Sequence record: MZ358387
DNA from: Shigella virus Moo19
Length of the DNA: 64,000 bases
Reading direction: 5' to 3' (one strand)
In this document: piece by piece, positions 5,286 to 50,107 of the stretch
How positions within the stretch are numbered: the first letter of the stretch is position 1
How the letters are laid out: each line of letters starts with the position of its first letter
Notes under the pieces: generated by a model
What the model saw: only the letters and a program-made list of their open reading frames with translations
The model's database searches: none
Told to the model about the DNA's origin: nothing
Program-made: the position numbers and the translations under genes

Positions 5286-6341
5286 ATGTCAAACATCGAT
5301 TCACTTGTCGTGTGTAACTCAAGACAAGCTCGTAAATTTATCATCCGTGCATTGCAGGCAGGTAACGTACCGTTCCTGACCTCCTCACCCGGTATGGGTA
5401 AATCTGCAATGATTCATAGCATTGCAGAAGAATTTGGCATGAAGCTGATTGACCATCGTCTGTCTACTTCTGCCCCAGAAGACCTGTCTGGTCTGCCACG
5501 TTTCCGTCCAGATGGACGTGCAGAGTTTGCACCGTTTGCAGACCTGTTCCCACTGGAGGGTGACGAAGTACCCGAAGGTTATAACGGCTGGCTCCTATTC
5601 CTTGATGAGTTCAACTCAGCCAAGAAAGAAGTTGTTGCTGCTGCATACAAACTGATTCTCGACCGTATGACTGGTCAGAAGAAGCTGCATCCTCAAGTGA
5701 TGATTGTATGTGCTGGTAACAAACAAACTGACCGTGCAATCGTTAACCCAATGGGTACTGCAATGCAGTCTCGTGTTGTGCATCTGGAAATGGAAATCAA
5801 CTTCGACATCTTTGTCGAAGACGTAATGATTCCTCAGAAATGGGATGAGCGTTTAGTTGCATTCCTCCATGCTAATACGTCGTATCTGCATGACTTCGAC
5901 CCGGCACACAAGAACAAAACGTTCTGCTGTCCTCGTACCTGGGACTTCGTTAACGAAGACCTAAAGAACCAGCCTCCTGGTGCTCTGCCTGATGAAGATT
6001 CTATCTTCTATGCTGGTCACGTCACTGCTGGTAAGGCAACTGAGTTCGTTCAGTTTACTCAGGTATATAACCAACTGGTCACTATTGAGCAAGTGGTTAA
6101 AGACCCTAAAGAGGCACGTTTACCGAAAGATAACAACCTCTGCTGGGCAACTGTTACCTATCTGGCTAATAAGACCACGGTAGATAACTTCCCGGATGTA
6201 GTTGAGTATATCCAGCGTCTGGATAAGATGACTCACCGCATCCTGTACTTCCGTACTGTGCATAAAATCGTACCAGATGTTACTGGCCTCCCTGAATGGC
6301 GTAAAGCTGGTGCAGAACTGTCTCGCTACCTACACGGATAA
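5286..6341 (+). CDS. MoxR-like AAA+ ATPase
   Basis: ATG 5286 after AGGA. Walker A 'SSPGMGKSA'; MoxR-type Walker B/sensor 'LLFLDEFNSA'. Confidence 0.65.
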   Translation: MSNIDSLVVCNSRQARKFIIRALQAGNVPFLTSSPGMGKSAMIHSIAEEFGMKLIDHRLSTSAPEDLSGLPRFRPDGRAEFAPFADLFPLEGDEVPEGYNGWLLFLDEFNSAKKEVVAAAYKLILDRMTGQKKLHPQVMIVCAGNKQTDRAIVNPMGTAMQSRVVHLEMEINFDIFVEDVMIPQKWDERLVAFLHANTSYLHDFDPAHKNKTFCCPRTWDFVNEDLKNQPPGALPDEDSIFYAGHVTAGKATEFVQFTQVYNQLVTIEQVVKDPKEARLPKDNNLCWATVTYLANKTTVDNFPDVVEYIQRLDKMTHRILYFRTVHKIVPDVTGLPEWRKAGAELSRYLHG

Positions 6342-6344
6342 AAC

Positions 6345-7517
6345 ATGAACCAGATACCTCAGCACACTTTGACCGACGAGCAACTCATGCGAGAGTATGA
6401 CCGTACTCAGGCTCAGGCTTTTCTGGGCAAGAGTGCTGCGTTCTTTGGCTCACTACTGTGTAGTCTTAAATTCTCCTGGCAACGGGAGAATTGCGATACC
6501 GCTCAGACCGATGGTACTGAGCTTCAGTTTAACCCTGACTTCTTTGTCTGGTTAAAGCCTGAAACAAGAAAGACCGTGCTTATGCACGAGCTTTGGCATG
6601 TAGGTTATCTGCATGGTGTCCGTCAGGGTTCTCGTGACCCAGAGTTCTGGAACTATGCCTGTGACATCTACATTAACAACCAGTTAGAAGACGACGGCTA
6701 CTCCTTCGAGGGAGTAGAGAACTGCTGGAAAGACCCAAAATATAAAGGTTGGGTCGAAGAGGATATTTACGATGACCTTATGAAGAATCCCCACAAGAAG
6801 CCGAAGGCATTGGGGGCATTTGGAACAGGGTCTGGTGGAGATATGGTTAGCCCCACTTCGGGTTCATCTCCTGCAACTATCGTCAACAACGTAGTACGTG
6901 CACTGCAACAACAAAAACTGGCTGGTGGCACACTAGCTGGTACTGGTGCAGGCCGTATGCAAGAGGTGATTACCCAATTCCTCAAGCCAGTAGTTCCGTG
7001 GCAGCAAGTCCTGTTCGACTTCTTCACTGACATTGATGACACCAAGTACACCTGGGCAAGACCTAATCGTCGTTACCCGGATATGTACCTGCCATCTCTG
7101 GAAGATGATGAAGGTCGCTTACGACATCTGGCCTATTTCGAGGATGTCTCTGGTTCCATTAGCAATGCTGACTCTCTGCGTTTTAACTCAGAAGTGGCCT
7201 ATGTTAAGAGCCAGTTTAATCCGAAGAAAATGACCCTACTCACTTTCGATACTGTTATTCAGGACGAAATCGATATCACCGAAGAGGATACCTTTGAGGA
7301 GATTAAGATTACAGGCCGTGGAGGTACTTGCCTCAAGCCTGTTCGTGAGTGGATTATCAAGAACAAGCCAACTGCTGCTATCATCTTCTCTGATATGCAC
7401 GTTGCACCTATGGAAGAACTCCCGTTTGATATACCTATCATCTGGGTTTGTTTGGGAAACCGACATGCCACCGTGCCTTTCGGTGAAATCTTACATATTG
7501 ACCCAGGAATGAAATAA
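6345..7517 (+). CDS. VWA-like protein with N-terminal HExxH metallopeptidase-like motif (DUF2201-like partner of MoxR ATPases)
   Basis: Starts 4 nt after the ATPase gene. 'LMHELWHVGYLH' motif near the N-terminus; C-terminal half resembles a VWA/MIDAS-type domain ('YFEDVSGSIS'). Confidence 0.5.
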   Translation: MNQIPQHTLTDEQLMREYDRTQAQAFLGKSAAFFGSLLCSLKFSWQRENCDTAQTDGTELQFNPDFFVWLKPETRKTVLMHELWHVGYLHGVRQGSRDPEFWNYACDIYINNQLEDDGYSFEGVENCWKDPKYKGWVEEDIYDDLMKNPHKKPKALGAFGTGSGGDMVSPTSGSSPATIVNNVVRALQQQKLAGGTLAGTGAGRMQEVITQFLKPVVPWQQVLFDFFTDIDDTKYTWARPNRRYPDMYLPSLEDDEGRLRHLAYFEDVSGSISNADSLRFNSEVAYVKSQFNPKKMTLLTFDTVIQDEIDITEEDTFEEIKITGRGGTCLKPVREWIIKNKPTAAIIFSDMHVAPMEELPFDIPIIWVCLGNRHATVPFGEILHIDPGMK

Positions 7518-8023
7518 TGGTTTTAAACGGAAATGCTCTGTATCGTTCGTCTCAACTGCTGGATGTCCCAGACCGTAAGGTATCCGAGCATGGTGTAAGC
7601 TATGGATTGGGTGAAGCTGGTTATGATATTCGTATCAAACAAGACATCACCTTCTATCGCTTATTTGGGTTGATTCCAATGGTGAAAACTGTCGATGGTG
7701 AGACGGTAACTCGTCGCTTCGGTAAGTTCGCATTGGCTTCAGCAATTGAGAAGTTCAATATGTCTCCGTCCTGTGTAGCTATCGTTCACGATAAGTCTAC
7801 CTGGGCAAGACGTGCATTATCAGTGTTCAATACCGTGATTGAACCAGGATGGAAAGGGTATCTTACTCTCGAACTGGTCTATCATGGTCGTAAGAAACTG
7901 CATATCCCGGCTGGTGCTGGGATTGCACAAGTGCTGTTCCATCTGGTTCAAGAACCTGCCCATTACAATGGGAAGTATCAGAACCAGGAAAACCAACCTG
8001 TCGCTGCAAGAAGCAGCAAATAA
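7517..8023 (+). CDS. dCTP deaminase/dUTPase-fold protein
   Basis: TAATG overlap with the upstream gene. Motif 'VFNTVIEPGWKGYLTLELVYHG' matches the dCTP deaminase/dUTPase beta-barrel signature. Confidence 0.55.
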   Translation: MVLNGNALYRSSQLLDVPDRKVSEHGVSYGLGEAGYDIRIKQDITFYRLFGLIPMVKTVDGETVTRRFGKFALASAIEKFNMSPSCVAIVHDKSTWARRALSVFNTVIEPGWKGYLTLELVYHGRKKLHIPAGAGIAQVLFHLVQEPAHYNGKYQNQENQPVAARSSK

Positions 8024-8032
8024 GGAATTACC

Positions 8033-8230
8033 ATGTCTGTATTTACTACTAAAGTTGGCGGTGTAAAAGTTACTGTTGTTGCTGCAAATGTTGCATTTGT
8101 ACGCGATATCGAAGGTAAAGGTGAACTGAACTTCGTATCCGGTCTGCAACTGCAAACTGAAGTCGGTTATGACTCTGTACGTCGTAACGTAGCTAAAGCA
8201 CTGTCAGGGGCTGAAGCAGAAGCTGAATAA
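8033..8230 (+). CDS. hypothetical small protein
   Basis: AGGA then ATG 8033; 65 aa. Confidence 0.45.
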   Translation: MSVFTTKVGGVKVTVVAANVAFVRDIEGKGELNFVSGLQLQTEVGYDSVRRNVAKALSGAEAEAE

Positions 8231-8251
8231 GTAGCAAGTGCTTACCTTAAT

Positions 8252-8270
8252 AGCCCTGCAATGCAGGGCT
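8252..8270 (+). other. perfect hairpin (terminator-like, weak U-tract)
   Basis: 'agccctgca a tgcagggct' inverted repeat right after the 8033..8230 gene, followed by 'atttg'. Confidence 0.3.
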
Positions 8271-8272
8271 AT

Positions 8273-8288
8273 TTGTGGAAGTTCCTTC
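8273..8288 (+). promoter_or_regulatory. 16-nt repeated motif TTGTGGAAGTTCCTTC, copy 1 (candidate promoter/operator)
   Basis: Exact 16-nt match to 8597-8612. Contains the near-palindrome GGAAGTTCC. Lies 8 nt upstream of the SD (8296-8300) of the Imm-like gene. Confidence 0.35.
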
Positions 8289-8306
8289 AATAACTCAGGA
8301 GTCTTA

Positions 8307-8567
8307 ATGGAAGTTTTATCTGCATTACTGGTTCTGGTAATTGCTCTTACAGCTTATCTGTTACCAACTATCATCGCATTCGTTCGTGGTCATGCTTCTA
8401 AGTGGGGCATTTTTATCACTAATTTACTGTTGGGCTGGTCACTGATTTTCTGGATTGTTGCACTGATTTGGTCACTGTCCAATAAAGGACAATCTCAGAC
8501 TACAATCGTTAACGTTGGAAGTGGTAACAGCTACAACGTGTCTCAAACGAGTCAGTCTGATAAGTAA
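8307..8567 (+). CDS. superinfection-immunity-like small membrane protein (Imm_superinfect-type)
   Basis: AGGAG 8296-8300 then ATG 8307. Two TM helices with the family-typical pattern 'YLLPTIIAFVRGHASKWGIFITNLLLGWSLIFWIVALIWSL'. Confidence 0.55.
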   Translation: MEVLSALLVLVIALTAYLLPTIIAFVRGHASKWGIFITNLLLGWSLIFWIVALIWSLSNKGQSQTTIVNVGSGNSYNVSQTSQSDK

Positions 8568-8596
8568 CTAACCTAAGCATCATTTAAAAGTGGTGC

Positions 8597-8612
8597 TTGT
8601 GGAAGTTCCTTC
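8597..8612 (+). promoter_or_regulatory. 16-nt repeated motif TTGTGGAAGTTCCTTC, copy 2
   Basis: Exact repeat of 8273-8288; here a full 5-bp stem/3-nt loop 'GGAAG TTC CTTCC'. Lies between the Imm-like gene and terminator 8641-8667. Confidence 0.35.
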
Positions 8613-8640
8613 CAGCTCATTGCTTATCCATGCGTAACCC

Positions 8641-8667
8641 AAAGCCCACTTAATCGTGGGCTTTTTT
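8641..8667 (+). terminator. rho-independent terminator
   Basis: Stem 'aagcccac'/'gtgggctt', loop 'ttaatc', then TTTTTT. Confidence 0.7.
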
Positions 8668-8682
8668 AATTTAGGTACTCTT

Positions 8683-9144
8683 ATGTCAGTCGTTAAAGGT
8701 TCATGGTCTGCCCGATACCCTAACTTAATGAATATACCCCGTGGCTCAGGTAAGTCAGTACTAGTAGGAATGGACTTTTCTAGTTTGGAAGACCGTGCAG
8801 CAATAGCTATACGTGATGGTAAATCTGCAAGAGTTATATCAGTATCGCCTACAGGTCGTATAAAAGATGACGCTATAGATGCGATGCTTATGCAAGCTCT
8901 ACAACATAACCTGTCTGGAACAAAAGCTGACTGGTACACAGTAGATGACTTGTATACACCCCCTAAACCACACTGCATGTCCCAAGTGCATGACATTATT
9001 GATAGCTTCTGGTCTGCCCCGGCACTGGGATTATATGGGCAATATATTGCTCAGTTAGACAAGAAGCCAAAAACCAAAGATGTTTTTAAAGGAAAAAGCA
9101 CTACTCACCATTACCCCTGGTATAGAAGAGGAAGCAAATACTAA
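8683..9144 (+). CDS. hypothetical protein
   Basis: Start set at ATG 8683, downstream of the terminator that occupies the upstream part of the ORF. Confidence 0.45.
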   Translation: MSVVKGSWSARYPNLMNIPRGSGKSVLVGMDFSSLEDRAAIAIRDGKSARVISVSPTGRIKDDAIDAMLMQALQHNLSGTKADWYTVDDLYTPPKPHCMSQVHDIIDSFWSAPALGLYGQYIAQLDKKPKTKDVFKGKSTTHHYPWYRRGSKY

Positions 9145-9146
9145 TA

Positions 9147-9593
9147 ATGCGTATCCCATTCTTAAACAAAAGGAAAAGGGTTCCAACCCTGTTTCAAAAG
9201 GGAATTGAAGACGAGTTCGCTCTTAACCGTAAAGCACAGCAATACATCGTAACTTTGTTCACTGGTGCAAAGGTAGATGCAGAAATGCAGCTTACTTTCA
9301 TATTTGAACAGCTATTCATCGTGTACAATCTCGCCTTGTTTACTGGCTCTCACGAAGTGAGTGATTGTGCACGAGAAGCCCTCCGTAAGCTCCGTGGTGA
9401 GTTTGAAAGACTACATGCCAGCTTTCCCTTCACTATGGATGCAGTCGCCTCTGTGAACTGCTCAAAGGCTCTGGCAATGGGTATACCCATTTTGCAAGAA
9501 CTACCTCGTAGTGAATTTAAGTTGGCTTATGTGCAAGCCCGTAAGCTAACGGAGTCCAAACAAACCCTAATCTATTTAGAGAACCTACGATGA
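9147..9593 (+). CDS. hypothetical protein
   Basis: ATG 9147, 2 nt after the upstream stop; ATGA overlap with the next gene. Confidence 0.5.
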   Translation: MRIPFLNKRKRVPTLFQKGIEDEFALNRKAQQYIVTLFTGAKVDAEMQLTFIFEQLFIVYNLALFTGSHEVSDCAREALRKLRGEFERLHASFPFTMDAVASVNCSKALAMGIPILQELPRSEFKLAYVQARKLTESKQTLIYLENLR

Positions 9594-10849: not shown

Positions 10850-10875
10850 AGACCTCCTACGGGAGGTCTTTTTTT
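10850..10875 (+). terminator. rho-independent terminator
   Basis: Stem 'gacctcc'/'ggaggtc' with loop 'tacg', then TTTTTTT. Same stem as the terminator at 2704-2731. Confidence 0.75.
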
Positions 10876-10901
10876 GAGTCTACTACTGTCCGGGAGGACT
10901 T

Positions 10902-26659: not shown

Positions 26660-27451
26660 ATGTCAAATCTGTTTGGTAATCTGAAAGACAAAACCAAAAA
26701 CGCTGAAGCTACTAAAGACTCCCTGGGTGGTGGCTTCGGTGCTAAAGAAACTGACATCTACACTGGTGTTGTGAAAGTTGCCTACGTAGGCAAAGCTGAC
26801 TCCGGTGCTGACTGGATGCAGCTTATCATCGAAGAACTGAAGAACTCTGACGGTGCACCTGCTGGTGAATACCGTGAGCAAGTCTACTTCACTTCCGGTA
26901 AAGAAAAAGGCAACAAGCCTACTTACGAGAAGAACGGTAAGGAATACTTCCTGCCTGGTTACACCACCATCAACGATATGATGTTGATGACTACTGGCAA
27001 AGAACTGTTCGAAGCTGACTTCGAAGAGAAGATTGTCAAAGTGTATGACTTCGACCAGCAAGCCGAAGTTAACAAGTCTGTCATGGTTCCAGTCGAAATG
27101 ATTGGTCAGCCAATCACCATTGCGATTGAAAAAGTTCTGGAGAACAAACAGTCCAAAGGTGACGACGGTAAGTACTACGACAACGGTGAAACCCGTGAAG
27201 TAAACAACATCCAGAAAGTGTTCCACCCGGAACTGTTGGTTACTGTTGTTGAAGCTCGTGAAGCCGAAAAAGCAGAGAAAGACCTGACGCCTGAACTGGC
27301 TCAGTTCCATGCTGCATGGCTGGATAAGAACAAAGGTAAAACCCGTGATAAAACCAGCAAGACTGGTGGCAAAGCGGGTACTCCACCTAAACCAGGTTCT
27401 ACTGGTGGTTCTGCTCCGGCTGGTGGTAAGTCTCTGTTCGGTAAGAAATAA
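26660..27451 (+). CDS. putative single-stranded DNA-binding protein (N4 gp45-like by size and position)
   Basis: 263 aa with a Gly/Lys/Thr-rich flexible C-terminus ('KTGGKAGTPPKPGSTGGSAPAGGKSLFGKK'). Confidence 0.45.
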   Translation: MSNLFGNLKDKTKNAEATKDSLGGGFGAKETDIYTGVVKVAYVGKADSGADWMQLIIEELKNSDGAPAGEYREQVYFTSGKEKGNKPTYEKNGKEYFLPGYTTINDMMLMTTGKELFEADFEEKIVKVYDFDQQAEVNKSVMVPVEMIGQPITIAIEKVLENKQSKGDDGKYYDNGETREVNNIQKVFHPELLVTVVEAREAEKAEKDLTPELAQFHAAWLDKNKGKTRDKTSKTGGKAGTPPKPGSTGGSAPAGGKSLFGKK

Positions 27452-28510: not shown

Positions 28511-28645
28511 TCTGGTAGGTGGCTCAGAAGCTGCTGCTATTTGTGGTAGTGTTCATAATTCTGATGCTATTGCTTATCAGGATTCTGGACGTGTCGGCTC
28601 CATACATAGCCTTTATCATCACTGTGATTATCCTCTGGAAATGCA

Positions 28646-28987
28646 GTGAAAAGTCCGGTGGTGACAAGCCGCCAGATTAATAACAACCGAACCAGTGTGC
28701 AGGAATACTCTCCCCTGTGCATTGGTTCAACTCGGATAAGTAATATGACTGTTCATCCTATGGAAGAGTACATTGATGCTCTTGTTACCTGTGAAATTGC
28801 CATGTTGATGGCCATCAAACACAAGGAGAATCCGAATGTTTCTGTAGCTTTGTGTGCTGCAAGGCAGTCACTTAAGTGCACTAACAGAATGAACAGGGAT
28901 TTGTTTCGTGAAGTCAGTAAATCTGAATTACCTGCTGTAATGGTCTATAGTTTCAGGACTATGCTGGATGAAGCAATTAGTAAATAG
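28646..28987 (+). CDS. hypothetical protein (start uncertain: GTG 28646 or ATG 28745)
   Basis: Open frame ahead of the tRNA array; no clear RBS at either start. Confidence 0.3.
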   Translation: MKSPVVTSRQINNNRTSVQEYSPLCIGSTRISNMTVHPMEEYIDALVTCEIAMLMAIKHKENPNVSVALCAARQSLKCTNRMNRDLFREVSKSELPAVMVYSFRTMLDEAISK

Positions 28988-33400: not shown

Positions 33401-36400
33401 GTCAGCAGGGTTAGTGCTGTTCGGGTCTGCCATGAAGTCTTCTACTTTCAGGTTCTTGGTAACGTGAGTGTAATACTCCTGAGCACGAGCCAGAGCAGCA
33501 GGATGAATTGCAGCCTCAGTTGCTAGTGCAGCAACAATGTTGGTGAACAGACGACGTTCTTGCATGTTCATAGTAAAACCATGCCCCTGAACATCACGAG
33601 TTACCTTAACTGCATTCACTACTGCGTCAGAGAATTTACCCTTACGCATATGTTGCTGTACCGGGTCATTACCCAGGTAGTTCGTAATGAGACGGTCAAA
33701 GGTTTGACCCAGTGAAGTAAGACGGTCATTGTTGCCATAAGCAGTGCTATGGAACAGGGTAGCCTCAGCAGTAACCGGAGCAACCGGAGGCTGTGAACGC
33801 ATCACTACAGCAGAGTTAAACAGCAGACCGGAGAACATATCTTCACCGTAAGCAGGGGCTTTCTTACGACCAAAAATGAGGCGTTTAATTGCTTCATAAA
33901 CATCTTTAACCATCCTGGTAAGAGCAGTGGTTTTCTTCTGCTTCTTAATCAGTTCATGGTTGGTTAAGCCCCATGCCATGTACTCATTCAGTGCAGCAGC
34001 TTTAGCCATTGCTGGGTCAATGAAACCGTTGGACAGATGACCATTGATAGTATCCAGTGCATCAGCGTAAGCCTCACGCATAGCCGGAGTATCTTTGGAT
34101 ACATCCAGACTACGGAACTGTTCCATCAGATTCTCGATGTTCTGTACAGCTTCATTGGTCTGGCCTTGATAGTGGTCAAGTACAGTCTCAAAAGTAGAAG
34201 CATGAACCAGTTCATGAATCAAGGTTTCCATTGATGGGCTAACCAGGTAGACAGTCTTATCTGCAAAGTTAGTCCAACCATAGATATTACCTGCATTTGC
34301 AGCTTCAATATCTTCTGGAGCAGGACGCTCTACGTTACGTTCCATTGCATACTGGTCAATCTGGTTCACGTTACCGTAAACAACCTTGTAGCCTTTAGCA
34401 GCCAGTGACTTCTGAATCTCATTCAGTACAGCAGCCTGTTCAACAGGAAGGTTGGACTCTTTAGCCAGTTTGTTAATAGCAGTCTGAGACAGCACACGAA
34501 CACCAGACTTCAGAGCACGGCCTACAGTATCAAACTTATTAGTATCGGCTACTGGAGTCTTCTCAGCTTTACGAGCCTCTTTACGAGCCTGCAATTCAGC
34601 ATCGAATAGCTCATTCAGTTTTGCTACTTGCTGGTCAACAGTCAGACCATCCAGAGAGATATTACCGTTGTTCACATAAGGGGAACCAACAGCAGCCATC
34701 TGGTCAACAGTAGTCTGTACCTGGTTCATTACCTTGTGACGGATATCGACACCCAGAGCAATGTTACGCAGGTTACGCTCAATAAGATTAACACCTGCTT
34801 TCTCAATCATATCAATCTTATACTGCCTGTCACCATCAACACGACTGATATGAGAAAGTTGTTCAAAATCCAAAGCAGAACGGGCAATACTATCAATTGC
34901 TTCATCTGATAACTTATTGAAATCTACATTTTTTACAAACTTAGAGAAGGAGTCATACACATTCTTGATAGGGTTACCCTGCCATGAAGTGTATACAGCT
35001 TCGTTAGCCTTACGGCTTGCATCAGTGATGTCATTGATACCGATGTTCATACCATCAAAGATTTTGAGAGTATTTTTCGGTGCACCTTTCATAATAGAAA
35101 GGGTCTGCATCATCATGCCGTCACCAGTACCAATCGTCATGAAAGGAATACCAGCAACACCAGCTTGTGACGGTGCATAGATGCTCATTGGCACACGCAT
35201 ACGGTCATCAAAGTTGGTAGCCAGAACCTGGTTAGCAACATCAGTATTCTCAGAACCAGCAATGTAGAAAGTCTGGGAACCAGTCTCAATCATTGGAGCT
35301 AAGTCAGACAGTGAAGCCTGAATATCGTTAAGCTCTTTCTGAGTTAAGAAGTCACCCTTCTTCCAGTTAGGGTCTTTTTCTTTTTCTGCCAGCTTCTCCT
35401 GGACACGTTGCTGGAACATGTCTTGCAGAACCAGAGACTGAATCTGGGTAGCTTTCTGAAGCTGTTCAGTGGAGTGCATCAGCCCTTCACCAACAGTATT
35501 CTGAATACCCTGTCTCATTGGTTCAACGAAAAAGTGCAGCATGTTCTCTTGCAGAGACTTCAGTTGCTCACCTTTGACAGTGAACTTCTGAGGGTCAATC
35601 TTGCCAGACATAGCAGTACCAGTGTCTTCAAGAGACAGTTTACCTTTACGCATAACTGGAACAGTACCAGTCAATGCTTTCATGTCTTCAATGAAACGAC
35701 CGAGCATAGCCTCAGCATCGGCCTCAGATGCTGCCTGCTTGCCGAACATTGCCATAGCCGGGGAAATGTCCGGGTTCTGTGCACGGGCTTGCAGAACGTC
35801 GCTGAAGCGTTCGTAGATGGCATCAGTAATTGCACTCACCATCTTGCCTGCAATACCACGAGCACCGGAACCATAAATGGTAATGGTCAGTGGGTTCTTG
35901 GCAATGCCACGTTTCAGTTCGAGGTTGCCTTCTTCATTGATGTTATAGTCAGGAATGAACAAGTCCATCAGAGAGGACAGATGATTCATCTGAGTATTAA
36001 CAGCCGGGTTATTGGCATAGGTATTTCGCAGGTTAGTCAGTGCAGCTTTCAGACCGTTAGTGGATGCTTCGTACAGGTCAACGCTATCGTCAATAGAACG
36101 ATGTTCGTTCATCGTCTTACCAGCACGACCAAAGAATAGACCACCCTTAGCAGTATTCTGTACCCATTCTTTGGTGAACTTACCACCAGTCATCAGCATC
36201 ATTGCGTTAATCGGACCGTTGGTTACACCATCAGCCTCAACGTACAGTGGAGTGTTGAACTTAGACTTGTCTTCAGCATTCAGGTAACGGGCATACTCCA
36301 TCAGAGCCATGAGAGCTACGAAGGATTTATCACCACCCAATGCAGTATTCAGAATCTCAACAGAGTTATCTGGCAGGTTCCCAGTTTTATCGAAATCAAC

Positions 36401-43389: not shown

Positions 43390-46032
43390 TTAATCTTTCA
43401 GTGTTAAGTCTAAGGTCATGTCAGAGAAATTGGTAATCATATCCAGAGACATACCAGCAATATCGGAACCAGTTAAGGTAGTACGAGAGAGGAAGGTATC
43501 CAGCGACTCGATAGAGACAAACTGCATTGGGTCAATTACACCCATACCATCTGTACCGAACATCTCTTCATACTTCTTATTAACAGCCATCATATCAGTA
43601 TTGTACTGCTGCATGGTTTGCTCTGCCTGACGAATGATATCAGCAGTAGAGGCATTAATGTACTGAGTAATCCCATTACCTACAGCAGAGGTAAGCTGCA
43701 TGATATTCTGAGCATTCATCATGTTAGCTGCCATAGTAGACATAGTAGTACCTGTAGCCATTGCAGTACCCACGTTCATTGCAACTACAGAGGCAATAGC
43801 AGCTACGATGAAACCAATCTTATCACCGAACAGTTGAGTAGAAGCCAACTGAAGAATAGAGATAAGAACCATTGCAGCAATGGCATTTGCCACAGCACCT
43901 ACAATTACAGCAGCTAAGCCAGCAAAGCCTAATGCAGCCCCTACAGCACCGTAAGCACCCAGGATACCAGCACCACCTGCACCAGCAGTAAATACTGATA
44001 CAACCACAGCAACCACAACTACTACGATTTTAAATGTCCCAGTTTGATACCACTTCTGCTTAACCTTCTTGTATGAGTTCATTACAAGATAGGAGCAAGC
44101 AGTAGCTAACTGAGTACTATGAGTCAGTGACATAGCACGATAAATATTGGTATGCAGTGGGATAAGGAATCCTGACTCCTCAGCATCACCCATAGCCTCT
44201 GCTACATCAATGCCAACAGACTTGTTCTTATACACCCGGTTATTATGATACAGACCCAGAACACGAAGACGGCGATAGGTGTTCTTACCATCCTGCCATA
44301 ACATTTCATACTCCTGCATGTTATAGACAGTATTGGTTTTTACTAAGTCACCCGTTTGATTATCTTTACGGAAATTGCTACGAGTAAGCTGAACATCACC
44401 AGCATAGCGAGTTCTTAGCTGGCTCTGCTTTGCACCTTCCCATGCTTGACCTGTATGAATAGTTTCAAATACGAAGTTCCACTCAATGGTCATATCATAC
44501 TTGTAACCCTTATCACTGCTAACCCTAAAGCTACGCTTAGGAATTACAGGATACTGTGGGGGTTCTGGTGGATTACCAGCAGAATGGTCACCCTCTTTCC
44601 ACCACTTATAATATGCCTCAGCAGCGGCATTAGCATCAGCAAACCCCTGGATAACAGCTTCCAATGTCGGATATTCTGGGTCAGGTGGGAATGACTCAGT
44701 AGCCATCTGGAAGAATCGATAAATATACTCTTTAGCCGTATCTTCCGGTGTATTGAGTGCACAACCGAATGTACCGTAGATGTATTGAATATCCCCAATT
44801 TTGTCGTTCTTTTTTAATTCAGTAACGACATCATCAAGCTTCCCTCCGGTTGCCTTCTTCATTGCTTTTTTGCAATCAGGGTAGATAGGGTCATTCTCTA
44901 CCCAACGTTTATCATTACGAATAGGAATGAATGGATAGAAGCGGTTATCAGACGCTGGGGTATCAAATAAAGCGTCCAGCACAGGATTACCATCCCCCTG
45001 CTTATAGATAAACAAATGAGGTTCATCAGTAGCAGTCATGGTTGTGTTGTTACTGGTGGACTGAGATACATAGAAGTTAACCAAAGATTCTTTGGTCACT
45101 TCAGTAATTGTAGTAATGGTTACCCCACCAACAGTTTCAGTCTTAGTATCGGTAGTGGTTTGCTTATCCACTCTCCCACGTTTAGATTGAGTCATCACAC
45201 GGTTATCAATGATGATAGTAGTGCCATCAGTGTTAAGAGTGAAGCCTCGTTTATAAACATTGACCCAGGAAGTCCAGTTCTGGGTAGTAGTAACAGGAGT
45301 AGTTGTTACTTCATCGGGACGACCATCACTGTACTTCTTAGTTACCTTGGTGGTGGTAGTCAGGGAAGTACTTTCTGCCTTATCTGTTTCAGACACAGTA
45401 GACCATAGAAAGGTAGACGGTAAATCACCCTCAGTAGGATAAATATCTTCTGGTCTTACTACAGGTGGTTCAACAGTAGGTTGCCTGTAATAGCTGTAAT
45501 CCACATAGAGGTAAAGAGCACCCGGAACAAAGTTCTCAGGGAAGAAGGAGATATCCGTTCCCCCATCCTGAGAAATCATGGTGATTTCGTTGGTATCCTC
45601 ATCAATATCAATTTCGAATTGTTCCATAATTCGTTCCGGATAATTTTCGTAAAGATACTGGTCACACCAATACTCAAAGTCAGCAAACCCAATCTCAGCA
45701 GATTGCACGAAAGTAGTGCTGTCTGCCTGAGTAGGTAACTGGCTGGCAACCACATCTGGGTCAACCTTAGCCAGTACACCTAATGAACTTGCTGCCATGC
45801 CTACCTTGTCATCGTAATGGTCTTTGCTCCATGAAGAGAACAAACGCATACGTACACCCGGACCATTCAGATAACTGCTTTGAATAGTGTCTGCCATAGT
45901 AAATCCTGTGTTGGAAACAATGTTCCCAATCACCACGGTCTTCATATAGTTAGGACGTTGGGCAATATCCCCAGCCAGGTTATACACTGAGGATGCTACG
46001 TAAATTTTTGTTTTCCTACTGAACAATCCCAT
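43390..46032 (-). CDS. large virion protein with Gly/Ala-rich hydrophobic segment (candidate ejection/channel protein)
   Basis: 880 aa. C-terminal third has a long hydrophobic Gly/Ala/Val tract ('KIVVVVVAVVVSVFTAGAGGAGILGAYGAVGAALGFAGLAAVIVGAVANAIAAMVLISIL'). Confidence 0.45.
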   Translation of the reverse strand: MGLFSRKTKIYVASSVYNLAGDIAQRPNYMKTVVIGNIVSNTGFTMADTIQSSYLNGPGVRMRLFSSWSKDHYDDKVGMAASSLGVLAKVDPDVVASQLPTQADSTTFVQSAEIGFADFEYWCDQYLYENYPERIMEQFEIDIDEDTNEITMISQDGGTDISFFPENFVPGALYLYVDYSYYRQPTVEPPVVRPEDIYPTEGDLPSTFLWSTVSETDKAESTSLTTTTKVTKKYSDGRPDEVTTTPVTTTQNWTSWVNVYKRGFTLNTDGTTIIIDNRVMTQSKRGRVDKQTTTDTKTETVGGVTITTITEVTKESLVNFYVSQSTSNNTTMTATDEPHLFIYKQGDGNPVLDALFDTPASDNRFYPFIPIRNDKRWVENDPIYPDCKKAMKKATGGKLDDVVTELKKNDKIGDIQYIYGTFGCALNTPEDTAKEYIYRFFQMATESFPPDPEYPTLEAVIQGFADANAAAEAYYKWWKEGDHSAGNPPEPPQYPVIPKRSFRVSSDKGYKYDMTIEWNFVFETIHTGQAWEGAKQSQLRTRYAGDVQLTRSNFRKDNQTGDLVKTNTVYNMQEYEMLWQDGKNTYRRLRVLGLYHNNRVYKNKSVGIDVAEAMGDAEESGFLIPLHTNIYRAMSLTHSTQLATACSYLVMNSYKKVKQKWYQTGTFKIVVVVVAVVVSVFTAGAGGAGILGAYGAVGAALGFAGLAAVIVGAVANAIAAMVLISILQLASTQLFGDKIGFIVAAIASVVAMNVGTAMATGTTMSTMAANMMNAQNIMQLTSAVGNGITQYINASTADIIRQAEQTMQQYNTDMMAVNKKYEEMFGTDGMGVIDPMQFVSIESLDTFLSRTTLTGSDIAGMSLDMITNFSDMTLDLTLKD

Positions 46033-48871: not shown

Positions 48872-50107
48872 TTAAAGTCCACCGGGATTCGGCAGTTTAG
48901 CGAACTCTTCATCACTCATAGCGAGTGGATTAATGAAACGTTCTACTTTTTTAGGTGCAGCTCGACTTGGCGAAGCAGCACTTGCTTGTTCAGAGTGGGT
49001 CACCGTAGGTTTCGGTTTAACCACTCGTGTTGCTACTGCTGCACGTTGAGCAGTAACTTCCGGCTTAGGTTCAACAGGTTTACCAGCCAGATGGTTAAAT
49101 GCACCTTGTTTAGCAAGAGCATCACCAACATAGTTATAAGCCTGAATAAACGGTGTTCCGGCTGGAATCTGACCTAACATCTGAAGACGGTTAATCTCAT
49201 TCGAGATAATGTCATAAATGCCATTTTCACGTTGAGACTGAATCGTCTGGATTAAGCCACGATTCTCAAACAGTGCATTCTTACTGGCTTCATCCCATGT
49301 CTGAGAAATTACACCTAAAGTAGCTTGTCCTTCTGGGGTAGACTTTAAATCGTCCAGTTCGGTTGCAAATGCTGCTTCAGTGTCAGATACACGGTGATTG
49401 CCTTTCTGGTAATTGATTTCCTCATCCATATTAATATCGAGAGGGTCAGTACCAGAATCTTTAAGCAACTTACGAATGGCTTCTGGGTTCTTCTTATCTA
49501 AGTCAATTAGATAAGACAGCTTGTCCTCATCCATCAGTCCGTTGTTTTCTAACATCAGCATCACCTTACGGTAAGGCTGTAATGCTTGCATCTTACGAGT
49601 GTAGTTAGCACCCATCTGCATCAGGCTAATGGCCTCCTCCGGTGATTGGGGAGTAATCATTTTACCGTTAGCTTTAAATGGAGCCATCAAACGTTCGTAA
49701 CCAGCTTTATAGTCGAAGTCGGTTGGCAGACCTTCAGACTGTTTATCCTCTTCTGTCTTACTCTGGCCGGAGTCTTCAGTAGCAGGAGCAGCTTTAGTAA
49801 TCGGCTTACCGTTACTATCAACTTCATTGGCGTCAACTTTATCATCAACTTTATCAGAAGTTAAATTTTTTGCTGCATCTTCATCTACTTCAGACTGCTC
49901 AGAGTTATCTTCTTCTGGTTCGTCCGTTGTGGTTGTTTCTTCAGATTGGGTAGTAACTACTTCTTCTTGTTCAGTAGTAACGTCTTCTTCTGGGTTGTTC
50001 TGAGTGTCTTGCTCAACTTCCTCTGAAGGAGGAACAGACATATTCAGAATCTCATCATCCGACATTGCGAGAATGTCGGAAGCCTGTTTAGTGGCTTCCG
50101 TAGTCAT
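48872..50107 (-). CDS. putative scaffolding protein
   Basis: 411 aa, highly acidic N-terminal half; located between portal and capsid genes. Confidence 0.4.
   Translation of the reverse strand: MTTEATKQASDILAMSDDEILNMSVPPSEEVEQDTQNNPEEDVTTEQEEVVTTQSEETTTTDEPEEDNSEQSEVDEDAAKNLTSDKVDDKVDANEVDSNGKPITKAAPATEDSGQSKTEEDKQSEGLPTDFDYKAGYERLMAPFKANGKMITPQSPEEAISLMQMGANYTRKMQALQPYRKVMLMLENNGLMDEDKLSYLIDLDKKNPEAIRKLLKDSGTDPLDINMDEEINYQKGNHRVSDTEAAFATELDDLKSTPEGQATLGVISQTWDEASKNALFENRGLIQTIQSQRENGIYDIISNEINRLQMLGQIPAGTPFIQAYNYVGDALAKQGAFNHLAGKPVEPKPEVTAQRAAVATRVVKPKPTVTHSEQASAASPSRAAPKKVERFINPLAMSDEEFAKLPNPGGL

Follow-up and report, generated by a model that had tools for sequence, protein, structure and literature searches.

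Organization of the imm locus

The DNA analysed here (hereafter, the window) is a stretch of 64,000 nucleotides of Shigella virus Moo19 (sequence record MZ358387), an N4-like coliphage (Enquatrovirinae) related to G7C/Gamaleyavirus. The window starts inside a gp16-like RNA polymerase gene, so that the early region with the virion-polymerase promoters lies outside it. The locus under study is ~77–81% identical to that of G7C-type Gamaleyaviruses and phage Jgk1, and its gene order is dCTP deaminase (7517–8023), gp27-like, imm, gp28-like, gp29-like, and ThyX. The corresponding locus of N4 and G7C is found about 13 kb from the left end, between gp27 and gp28 in the middle-gene region, consistent with the initial annotation, which had placed the two copies of a repeated motif around imm outside the early region. 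Coordinates of all features are compiled in Table 1.

The imm reading frame was confirmed, with its start at 8307 and not at 8308 as first read. The deduced product matched Imm_superinfect (PF14373) with a score of 64.2 bits (cut-off, 27.9; E = 9.7e-18), in which residues 17–57 cover the full 42-position profile, and also PHROG 1039 'immunity to superinfection' (E = 2e-33). In a tblastn search with the product, identity was 88% to G7C gp27.1 and about 49% to the T-even 'imm' genes. Two hydrophobic helices, LSALLVLVIALTAYLLPTIIAFV and GIFITNLLLGWSLIFWIVALIWSL, are recognized by eye in the translation. The original description of a two-TM, Imm-like protein between the two motif copies thus holds, and membership of the putative immunity protein in the Imm_superinfect family is supported by the profile matches.

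The gp27–gp28 intergenic module has four parts: a GC-rich stem-loop that directly follows the stop codon, the motif (T)TGTGGAAGTTNCTTCCA, a CATTGCTTA box, and an intrinsic terminator. In the window, the last base of the stem-loop following gp27 (hairpin 1) is the first base of motif copy 1 (8273), and the 3′ end of the stem-loop following imm (hairpin A) overlaps copy 2. Sequence and fold place copy 1 between a hairpin and the Shine-Dalgarno sequence of imm, and the terminator scan places copy 2 28 nt upstream of a terminator, both as initially read. Alternatively, the sequence of the small hairpin B may pair with AAGTAACT, located immediately behind the imm stop codon, and so provide the 3′ side of an extended lower stem. 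The terminator has a 9-pair stem with 5 GC pairs and a T run, as expected of intrinsic terminators; its stem is invariant in 22 relatives, and it is annotated as a terminator in PhAPEC5. Conservation is much higher between the motif and the terminator than in the neighboring genes. A search of Rfam with the module gave no family match; its only hits, all below threshold, were leader and sRNA look-alikes that owed their scores to the terminator. The possibility of a small ORF spanning the motif region, on one or the other strand, was rejected because in imm-less relatives such a frame is interrupted or shifted.

The N4-type module is 97–100% conserved in 16 N4 relatives, including Enquatrovirus Jura (LR999871) and AL25 (OW991345), and the depositors of some of the N4-relative records annotated two terminators within it. 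Elsewhere in the window, two predicted intrinsic terminators have in common the exact 16-mer GGGAGGTCTTTTTTTG (2717–2732 and 10861–10876).

Table 1. Features of the imm locus, in window coordinates
Feature	Position	Strand	Basis and remarks
gp27-like ORF, 65 aa	8033..8230	+	Aligns to N4 gp27, G7C gp27, and others; PHROG 7594; conserved upstream neighbor
Hairpin 1, AATAGCCCTGC-AAT-GCAGGGCTATT, predicted 11-bp stem, 3-nt loop	8249..8273	+	End of gp27; RNA fold
Motif copy 1, TTGTGGAAGTTCCTTC	8273..8288	+	Left junction of imm indel; local hairpin cut down to 4 bp
Segment absent from L169 (imm cassette and one repeat copy), 324 bp	8289..8612		Equivalently 8273–8596; blastn
Shine-Dalgarno AGGAG of imm	8297..8301	+	Sequence read directly
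imm, superinfection-immunity family, 86 aa, two-TM	8307..8567	+	Pfam PF14373, PHROG 1039, tblastn
Hairpin A, AAGCAUCAUUU-AAAA-GUGGUGCUU	8574..8599	+	End of imm; fold; counterpart of hairpin 1
Motif copy 2	8597..8612	+	Right junction; copy kept in every relative
Hairpin B, TGGAAG-TTC-CTTCCA, predicted 6-bp stem, 3-nt loop	8600..8614	+	Fold
Conserved box CATTGCTTATCC	8618..8629	+	Alignment; CATT(G/A)CTTA core kept from N4 to Gamaleyavirus
Intrinsic terminator, AAAGCCCAC-TTAATC-GTGGGCTTT, then T run	8641..8667	+	Terminator scan
gp28-like ORF	8683..9144	+	PHROG 12812; downstream neighbor; allele differs from L169

The 16-nt direct repeat

The motif TTGTGGAAGTTCCTTC occurs as an exact 16-nt direct repeat, at the two positions originally claimed. 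A search of the 64-kb window returned only these two copies, with no further copy at two or fewer mismatches; there is a lone match with three mismatches, at 49927, as would be expected by chance (0.64 matches). The 5-bp-stem pattern GGAAGNNNCTTCC is found once in the window, at copy 2. Both motif copies are also contained in an independent metagenome contig (L147; ENA, 871 nt, 99% identical), and hence the repeat is no assembly artefact.

As such, an exact 16-mer repeat is not rare in this 64-kb window, which has four independent repeats of 16 nt or longer where ~0.6 repeated 16-mers are expected. This number favors the view that the repeat is a meaningless coincidence of 16-mers. The TTGTGGAAGTTCCTTC pair is, however, the only one of the four that is spaced by less than 500 nt, such a pair being present in 0.5% of simulated sequences (P ~0.005), and it matches an element conserved across genera. 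Moreover, the two copies match exactly the breakpoints of an indel relative to a sister contig, L169 (see below). Because the repeat and the breakpoints of this alignment are the same, the chance explanation is effectively refuted, and we give it practically no weight.

The related sequence that had been pointed out near 28536 is indeed present (GCTATTTGTGG at 28536–28546), but it was rejected as a relative of the module, since it lies inside a small hydrophobic ORF (LLLFVVV...) and is best taken as a coding coincidence. This ORF (28519–28680; 53 aa, GTG start, strongly hydrophobic) holds both GCTATTTGTGG and TATTGCTTATCA, which mimic two parts of the intergenic module but encode Leu/Phe/Val runs. 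The longest exact repeat in the window is a 17-mer direct repeat, GGTTGCCTTCTTCATTG, at 35923–35939 and 44848–44864, and perfect 16-nt palindromes, AATGGGTATACCCATT and TTGCCTACGTAGGCAA, are located at 9476–9491 and 26778–26793.

Empty alleles and the junctions of the imm segment

The metagenomic sister contig L169 is 97.2% identical to the window over 6274–8288 and then resumes at 8597 to continue to 8686 (blastn), and a single 16-mer of L169 (bases 6877–6892) aligns to both window copies. As the alignment breaks off exactly where copy 1 ends and is taken up again where copy 2 begins, L169 corresponds to the window minus 324 bp, namely, imm and one copy of the motif. The TTGTGGAAGTTCCTTC repeat thus marks both junctions of a 324-bp imm insertion/deletion, a case of ordinary phage mosaicism.

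Exact direct repeats that flank a small accessory gene, together with relatives having a clean one-copy empty site, would also be expected if the repeat were the target-site duplication of a self-mobile element (a transposon or homing cassette) carrying imm, and related phages often have genes for HNH homing endonucleases in the vicinity. However, imm is the only gene in the 308 bp between the repeats, where no transposase, integrase, or endonuclease is encoded; no terminal inverted repeats were seen at the cassette ends on reading, and no HNH gene adjoins the locus in the window. The imm cassette had no match in 5,426 complete E. coli genomes, and no host or prophage donor was identified there. 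In addition, the left junction of the other imm-bearing phages is a different one and has decayed, and a repeat of 16 bp exceeds the usual length of target-site duplications. We consider an origin of the repeat from such an element highly improbable.

All imm-less relatives examined, N4 included, carry the motif or an N4-type variant of it once. The motif is located directly after the gp27 hairpin in the imm-less phiG17, Moonfish, Jgk1, L138/139, L140, and L181, and the imm-less N4 and the genus-level group L141/144/145 have a variant hairpin followed by CATTGCTTAG and the same terminator. Among the other imm-bearing relatives examined, the right copy is intact in 14/14, and the left copy of the same 14 has decayed to TTGTG and then AAGAAACTAACTCAACC, in which 12 of 19 positions match the motif. 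The region around the imm stop codon (CTGATAAGTAACTAACCT) agrees with that around the gp27 stop codon of imm-less phiG17 (CTGAATAAGTAACTTACCT) at 17 of 19 positions (shuffle P < 0.001). The end of imm is therefore homologous to the end of phiG17 gp27, which indicates that the duplicated unit was once larger than 16 nt and comprised the whole gene end. Within the window, a duplication of more than 16 nt was rejected as not significant, the similarity of the two modules beyond the 16-mer giving P = 0.08 upstream and P = 0.48 downstream, in contrast to the significant match between the ends of phiG17 gp27 and imm. No exact match to the left junction of the window was found in IMG/VR; a loose pattern (CATTGCTTA, gap, GCCCAC) gave at least 120 matches in the same database, mostly by chance and only 4 of them N4-like, and was set aside. 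If the duplication is old, the 16/16 identity of the non-conserved left copy would need luck (~0.1, estimate), gene conversion, or a recent event.

The breakpoints of mosaicism coincide with the module, one being inside imm and another, a gp28 swap, downstream of the terminator. In alignment with imm of the G7C/PhAPEC5 type, about 200 nt of the 5′ part are ~70% identical, and about 120 nt of the 3′ part plus hairpin A are ~95% identical; the former value is consistent with a long residence of imm, and the latter indicates a recent exchange. The recombination breakpoint inside imm is located at about 8460–8480 of the window. On the downstream side, L169 gave no alignment with the window over 8686–9094, and the gp28 allele has been replaced relative to this 97%/90%-identical sister. 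The replacement is bounded by the terminator on the left and by the start of gp29 on the right; the start of the window gp28 allele resembles that of PhAPEC5-type gp28, and that of L169 resembles the Jgk1 type. Since the genome is mosaic, parsimony does not decide between gain and loss of imm.

RNA structure of the module and the folded strand

For the comparison of structures, the region between the gene end and the terminator was aligned in 22 distinct versions. The 5-bp stem with a 3-nt loop that had been ascribed to both copies of the motif is formed by copy 2, even with 6 bp (UGGAAG-UUC-CUUCCA; 3-nt loop; −5.7 kcal/mol; z = −2.8), but copy 1, in which CTTC is followed by A, forms a stem of only 4 bp (−1.4 kcal/mol; z about 0, 0.02). 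In the fold, GGAAGU of copy 1 is paired with GCUUACC upstream of hairpin 1. For the first stem-loop (hairpin 1/A), compensatory changes were found in 8 of the 9 stem pairs among the aligned versions; hairpin A has three unrelated sequence types among the relatives, with the stem being kept in all. The small motif hairpin (TGGAAG-TTN-CTTCCA) is 95% paired, and the third base of its loop takes all four values among the relatives. Its stem never varies, and hence covariation is silent for or against hairpin B.

RNAalifold prefers another pairing, in which GG.AAGTTNCTT is paired with AAGNAACT..CC just after the stop codon, so as to extend the first stem-loop. This extended lower stem is also 95% paired, and its pair 28:74 is U-A in 11, U·G in 5, and G-C in 4 versions, and is broken in the window (U/C) and Moonfish. 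According to these models, the motif can form either the small hairpin or the 3′ strand of the lower stem that extends the first stem-loop. A stem between the stop-codon region and the CATTGCTTATC box was only 78% paired and was not adopted. In the imm ends of the St11Ph5 type (L010, 725–765; L013; L014), the arms of hairpin A (GAAGTA...TACTTC) repeat those of the motif hairpin (GAAGTTACTTC), so that several mutually exclusive pairings are possible.

The two variable helices (hairpin A/1 and the extended stem) contain G·U in 18% and 15% of cells, respectively, and A/C mismatches in 1–2%. This roughly tenfold excess of G·U over A/C is the pattern left by selection on the sense-strand RNA, and a DNA hairpin of the template strand would not give it; the covarying helices therefore fold in the RNA.

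Comparison of the motif with phage promoters

The motif had been likened in the initial annotation to the hairpin promoters of N4-type virion RNA polymerase (vRNAP), in which a hairpin with a 3-nt loop is formed in the template strand and transcription starts about 11 nt downstream. The promoter determinants for N4 vRNAP are a purine at −11, G at −10, G at −8, C at +1, and a C:G loop-closing pair (PMC4496689). Canonical sites in this phage group read NNNGC-T(C/T)C-GCNNN followed by TT(A/T/G)T-GG (template strand, NNNGC-GGA/GAA-GCNNN; +1 context, stem-TTAT-GG). Our scan recovered every known site in N4 and G7C, with canonical sites at 89, 503, 1228, and 5221 in G7C and at 90, 559, and 4548 in N4, and the same scan detected no canonical GCT(C/T)CGC hairpin in the 64-kb window.

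The resemblance to N4 promoters P1–P3 consists of the short stem (5–6 bp) and 3-nt loop of copy 2 and of the TT(G/A/T)TGG after the hairpin. The template loop in the window is GAA as in N4 P1 (GTTGC-GAA-GCAAC), which provides −11A and −10G, and a hairpin followed by TTGTGG is also seen at the canonical promoter upstream of G7C gp15. Beyond these points, the motif differs from P1–P3: in the template GGAAG-GAA-CTTCC, the closing pair is G:C, not C:G, and −8 is A, not G; +1 of the template is G, not C (non-template strand, CTTCC-AGCT-C in copy 2 and CTTCA-ATAA-C in copy 1); and the −10 base, which fits in the window, is unconserved, being G, C, T, or A among relatives (plus strand, TTC/TTG/TTA/TTT). 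The 4-bp stem of copy 1 (z = 0), the position in the middle-gene region, about 13 kb from the left end, and the terminator that comes after copy 2 before any gene are likewise against a vRNAP promoter, as is the single-copy state of the motif in imm-less relatives, which leaves no repeated promoter consensus. Finally, judging from the asymmetry between G·U and A-C, it is in the sense strand that the covarying helices are selected, whereas the hairpin of a vRNAP promoter forms in the template strand. The reading as a virion polymerase promoter is thus not supported, and we regard it as very improbable. A transcription-start map of N4 covering the gp27–gp28 region was not found in the searchable literature.

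Canonical vRNAP-type hairpins are present upstream of gp15 in G7C (L006, 5221–5245; GGTGC-TCC-GCACC, then TTGTGGTAATTA) and N4 (L017, 4548–4572; GCTGC-TCC-GCAGC, then TTTTGGTAATTA). The TT(G/T)TGG that follows these stems is the hexamer with which the TTGTGGAAGTTCCTTC motif begins.

A different assignment to transcription initiation would be that hairpin 1 or A with the following TTGTGG constitutes a middle-stage (RNAPII) promoter, copy 1 driving imm, or the start of an sRNA of ~65 nt, extending from the motif to the terminator at 8667. In LUZ7, middle transcription starts at a G some 15 nt downstream of a GC-rich hairpin, whose stem has 6 bp or more and whose loop has 3–4 nt (PMC9163698), and hairpin 1 fits this layout, with the G residues at 8275–8278 lying 14–17 nt from the loop center. 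The high conservation of the motif-to-terminator stretch relative to the neighboring genes would also be explained, and the 5′ hairpin, single-stranded C/U-rich stretch, and terminator resemble the layout of an sRNA. On the other hand, N4 RNAPII promoters have been described with an AT-rich −7 to +2 element and without a hairpin (PMC4496689), and the G·U/A-C asymmetry shows selection of the stems in the sense strand, whereas N4-type polymerases use the template strand. The left copy has decayed in all other imm-bearing phages examined, and so is not needed for imm expression; moreover, the element is single-copy per genome, and there is no Rfam family match. We therefore consider a middle promoter or sRNA start unlikely, if less so than a vRNAP promoter.

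Discussion

The evidence taken together makes it probable that the imm indel sits in a conserved gene-end RNA module between gp27 and gp28, the repeat being its junctions and not a promoter. In the explanation that we propose, imm would be a non-essential 'moron' inside the gene-end module, with its own copy of the gene-end sequence behind it; this would account for the motif on both sides of imm. Short-homology recombination between the two motif copies would delete the 324-bp imm segment, and in the reverse reaction, integration of the cassette through a single copy, via a circular or heterologous intermediate, would insert imm. The crossover site would most likely be the 16-nt repeat itself. 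The module presumably acts in the mRNA, as a 3′-end stabilizer, an attenuator, or a processing site (possibly of the RNase III type), rather than as a promoter.

A more far-reaching proposal, which we put forward only tentatively, is that the module, conserved from N4 to Gamaleyavirus, represents an uncharacterised functional RNA. It could be, for example, a switch for RNase III-type processing or for attenuation, with the small hairpin and the extended stem as its two states, or it could give rise to a 3′-UTR-derived sRNA of ~65 nt. It might also be a recombination linker for gain and loss of imm, resembling the promoter-early stem-loop (PeSL) cassettes of T4-type phages and possibly operating via a 324-bp mini-circle. 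If this is true, the shuffling of genes mediated by regulatory cassettes extends to a phage family that uses its own T7-like polymerase for these genes.

The results remove a tempting but wrong promoter annotation and provide an explanation for the repeat. The alleles with and without imm, whose flank is 97% identical, constitute a natural pair suited to tests of Imm in an N4-like phage. Perfect 16-nt repeats predict that imm is genetically unstable in this lineage, being lost by repeat-mediated deletion, which is relevant to the therapeutic or engineered use of such phages. The conserved intergenic module, present also in the model phage N4, offers a defined and inexpensive target for transcript-end mapping.

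The putative immunity protein resembles Imm of T4 and other T-even phages in its small size, two hydrophobic helices, and PF14373 score above the threshold, as well as in its similarity to the T-even 'imm' genes. It differs from the T-even-type proteins in being only about 45–55% identical over the core and in being encoded by a podovirus with different DNA-ejection machinery. As a member of this family, it would be expected to block the entry of DNA from superinfecting phages.

The mRNAs of T7 have intergenic hairpins for processing by RNase III. Like the module, these are long imperfect stem-loops located at gene ends, and the transcripts are in both cases products of a T7-like polymerase. 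The likeness is one of shape only; in the predicted module structure, an internal loop separates an upper stem of 9–11 bp from a lower one of ~8 bp.

The closest known analogue of the module is the PeSL cassette of T4-type phages, whose repeats recombine to give indels and mini-circles (Arbiol et al. 2010, PMC2839356; Comeau et al. 2014, PMC4122927). Like the module, PeSLs are composite regulatory repeats of short length, starting at the stop codon of the preceding gene and including a stem-loop; they flank small non-essential genes and coincide with the breakpoints of insertion, deletion, and replacement between close relatives. At the present locus, hairpin 1 and the motif precede imm and hairpin A and the motif follow it, imm is absent in many relatives, and both breakpoints between L169 and the window fall within the 16-mer. 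PeSLs differ from the module in having a strong sigma-70 promoter and about 50 copies in each genome; no sigma-70-like promoter site was detected in 8230–8300 or 8590–8640, the motif is present once or twice per genome, and the genes around the module are transcribed by the phage T7-like polymerase.
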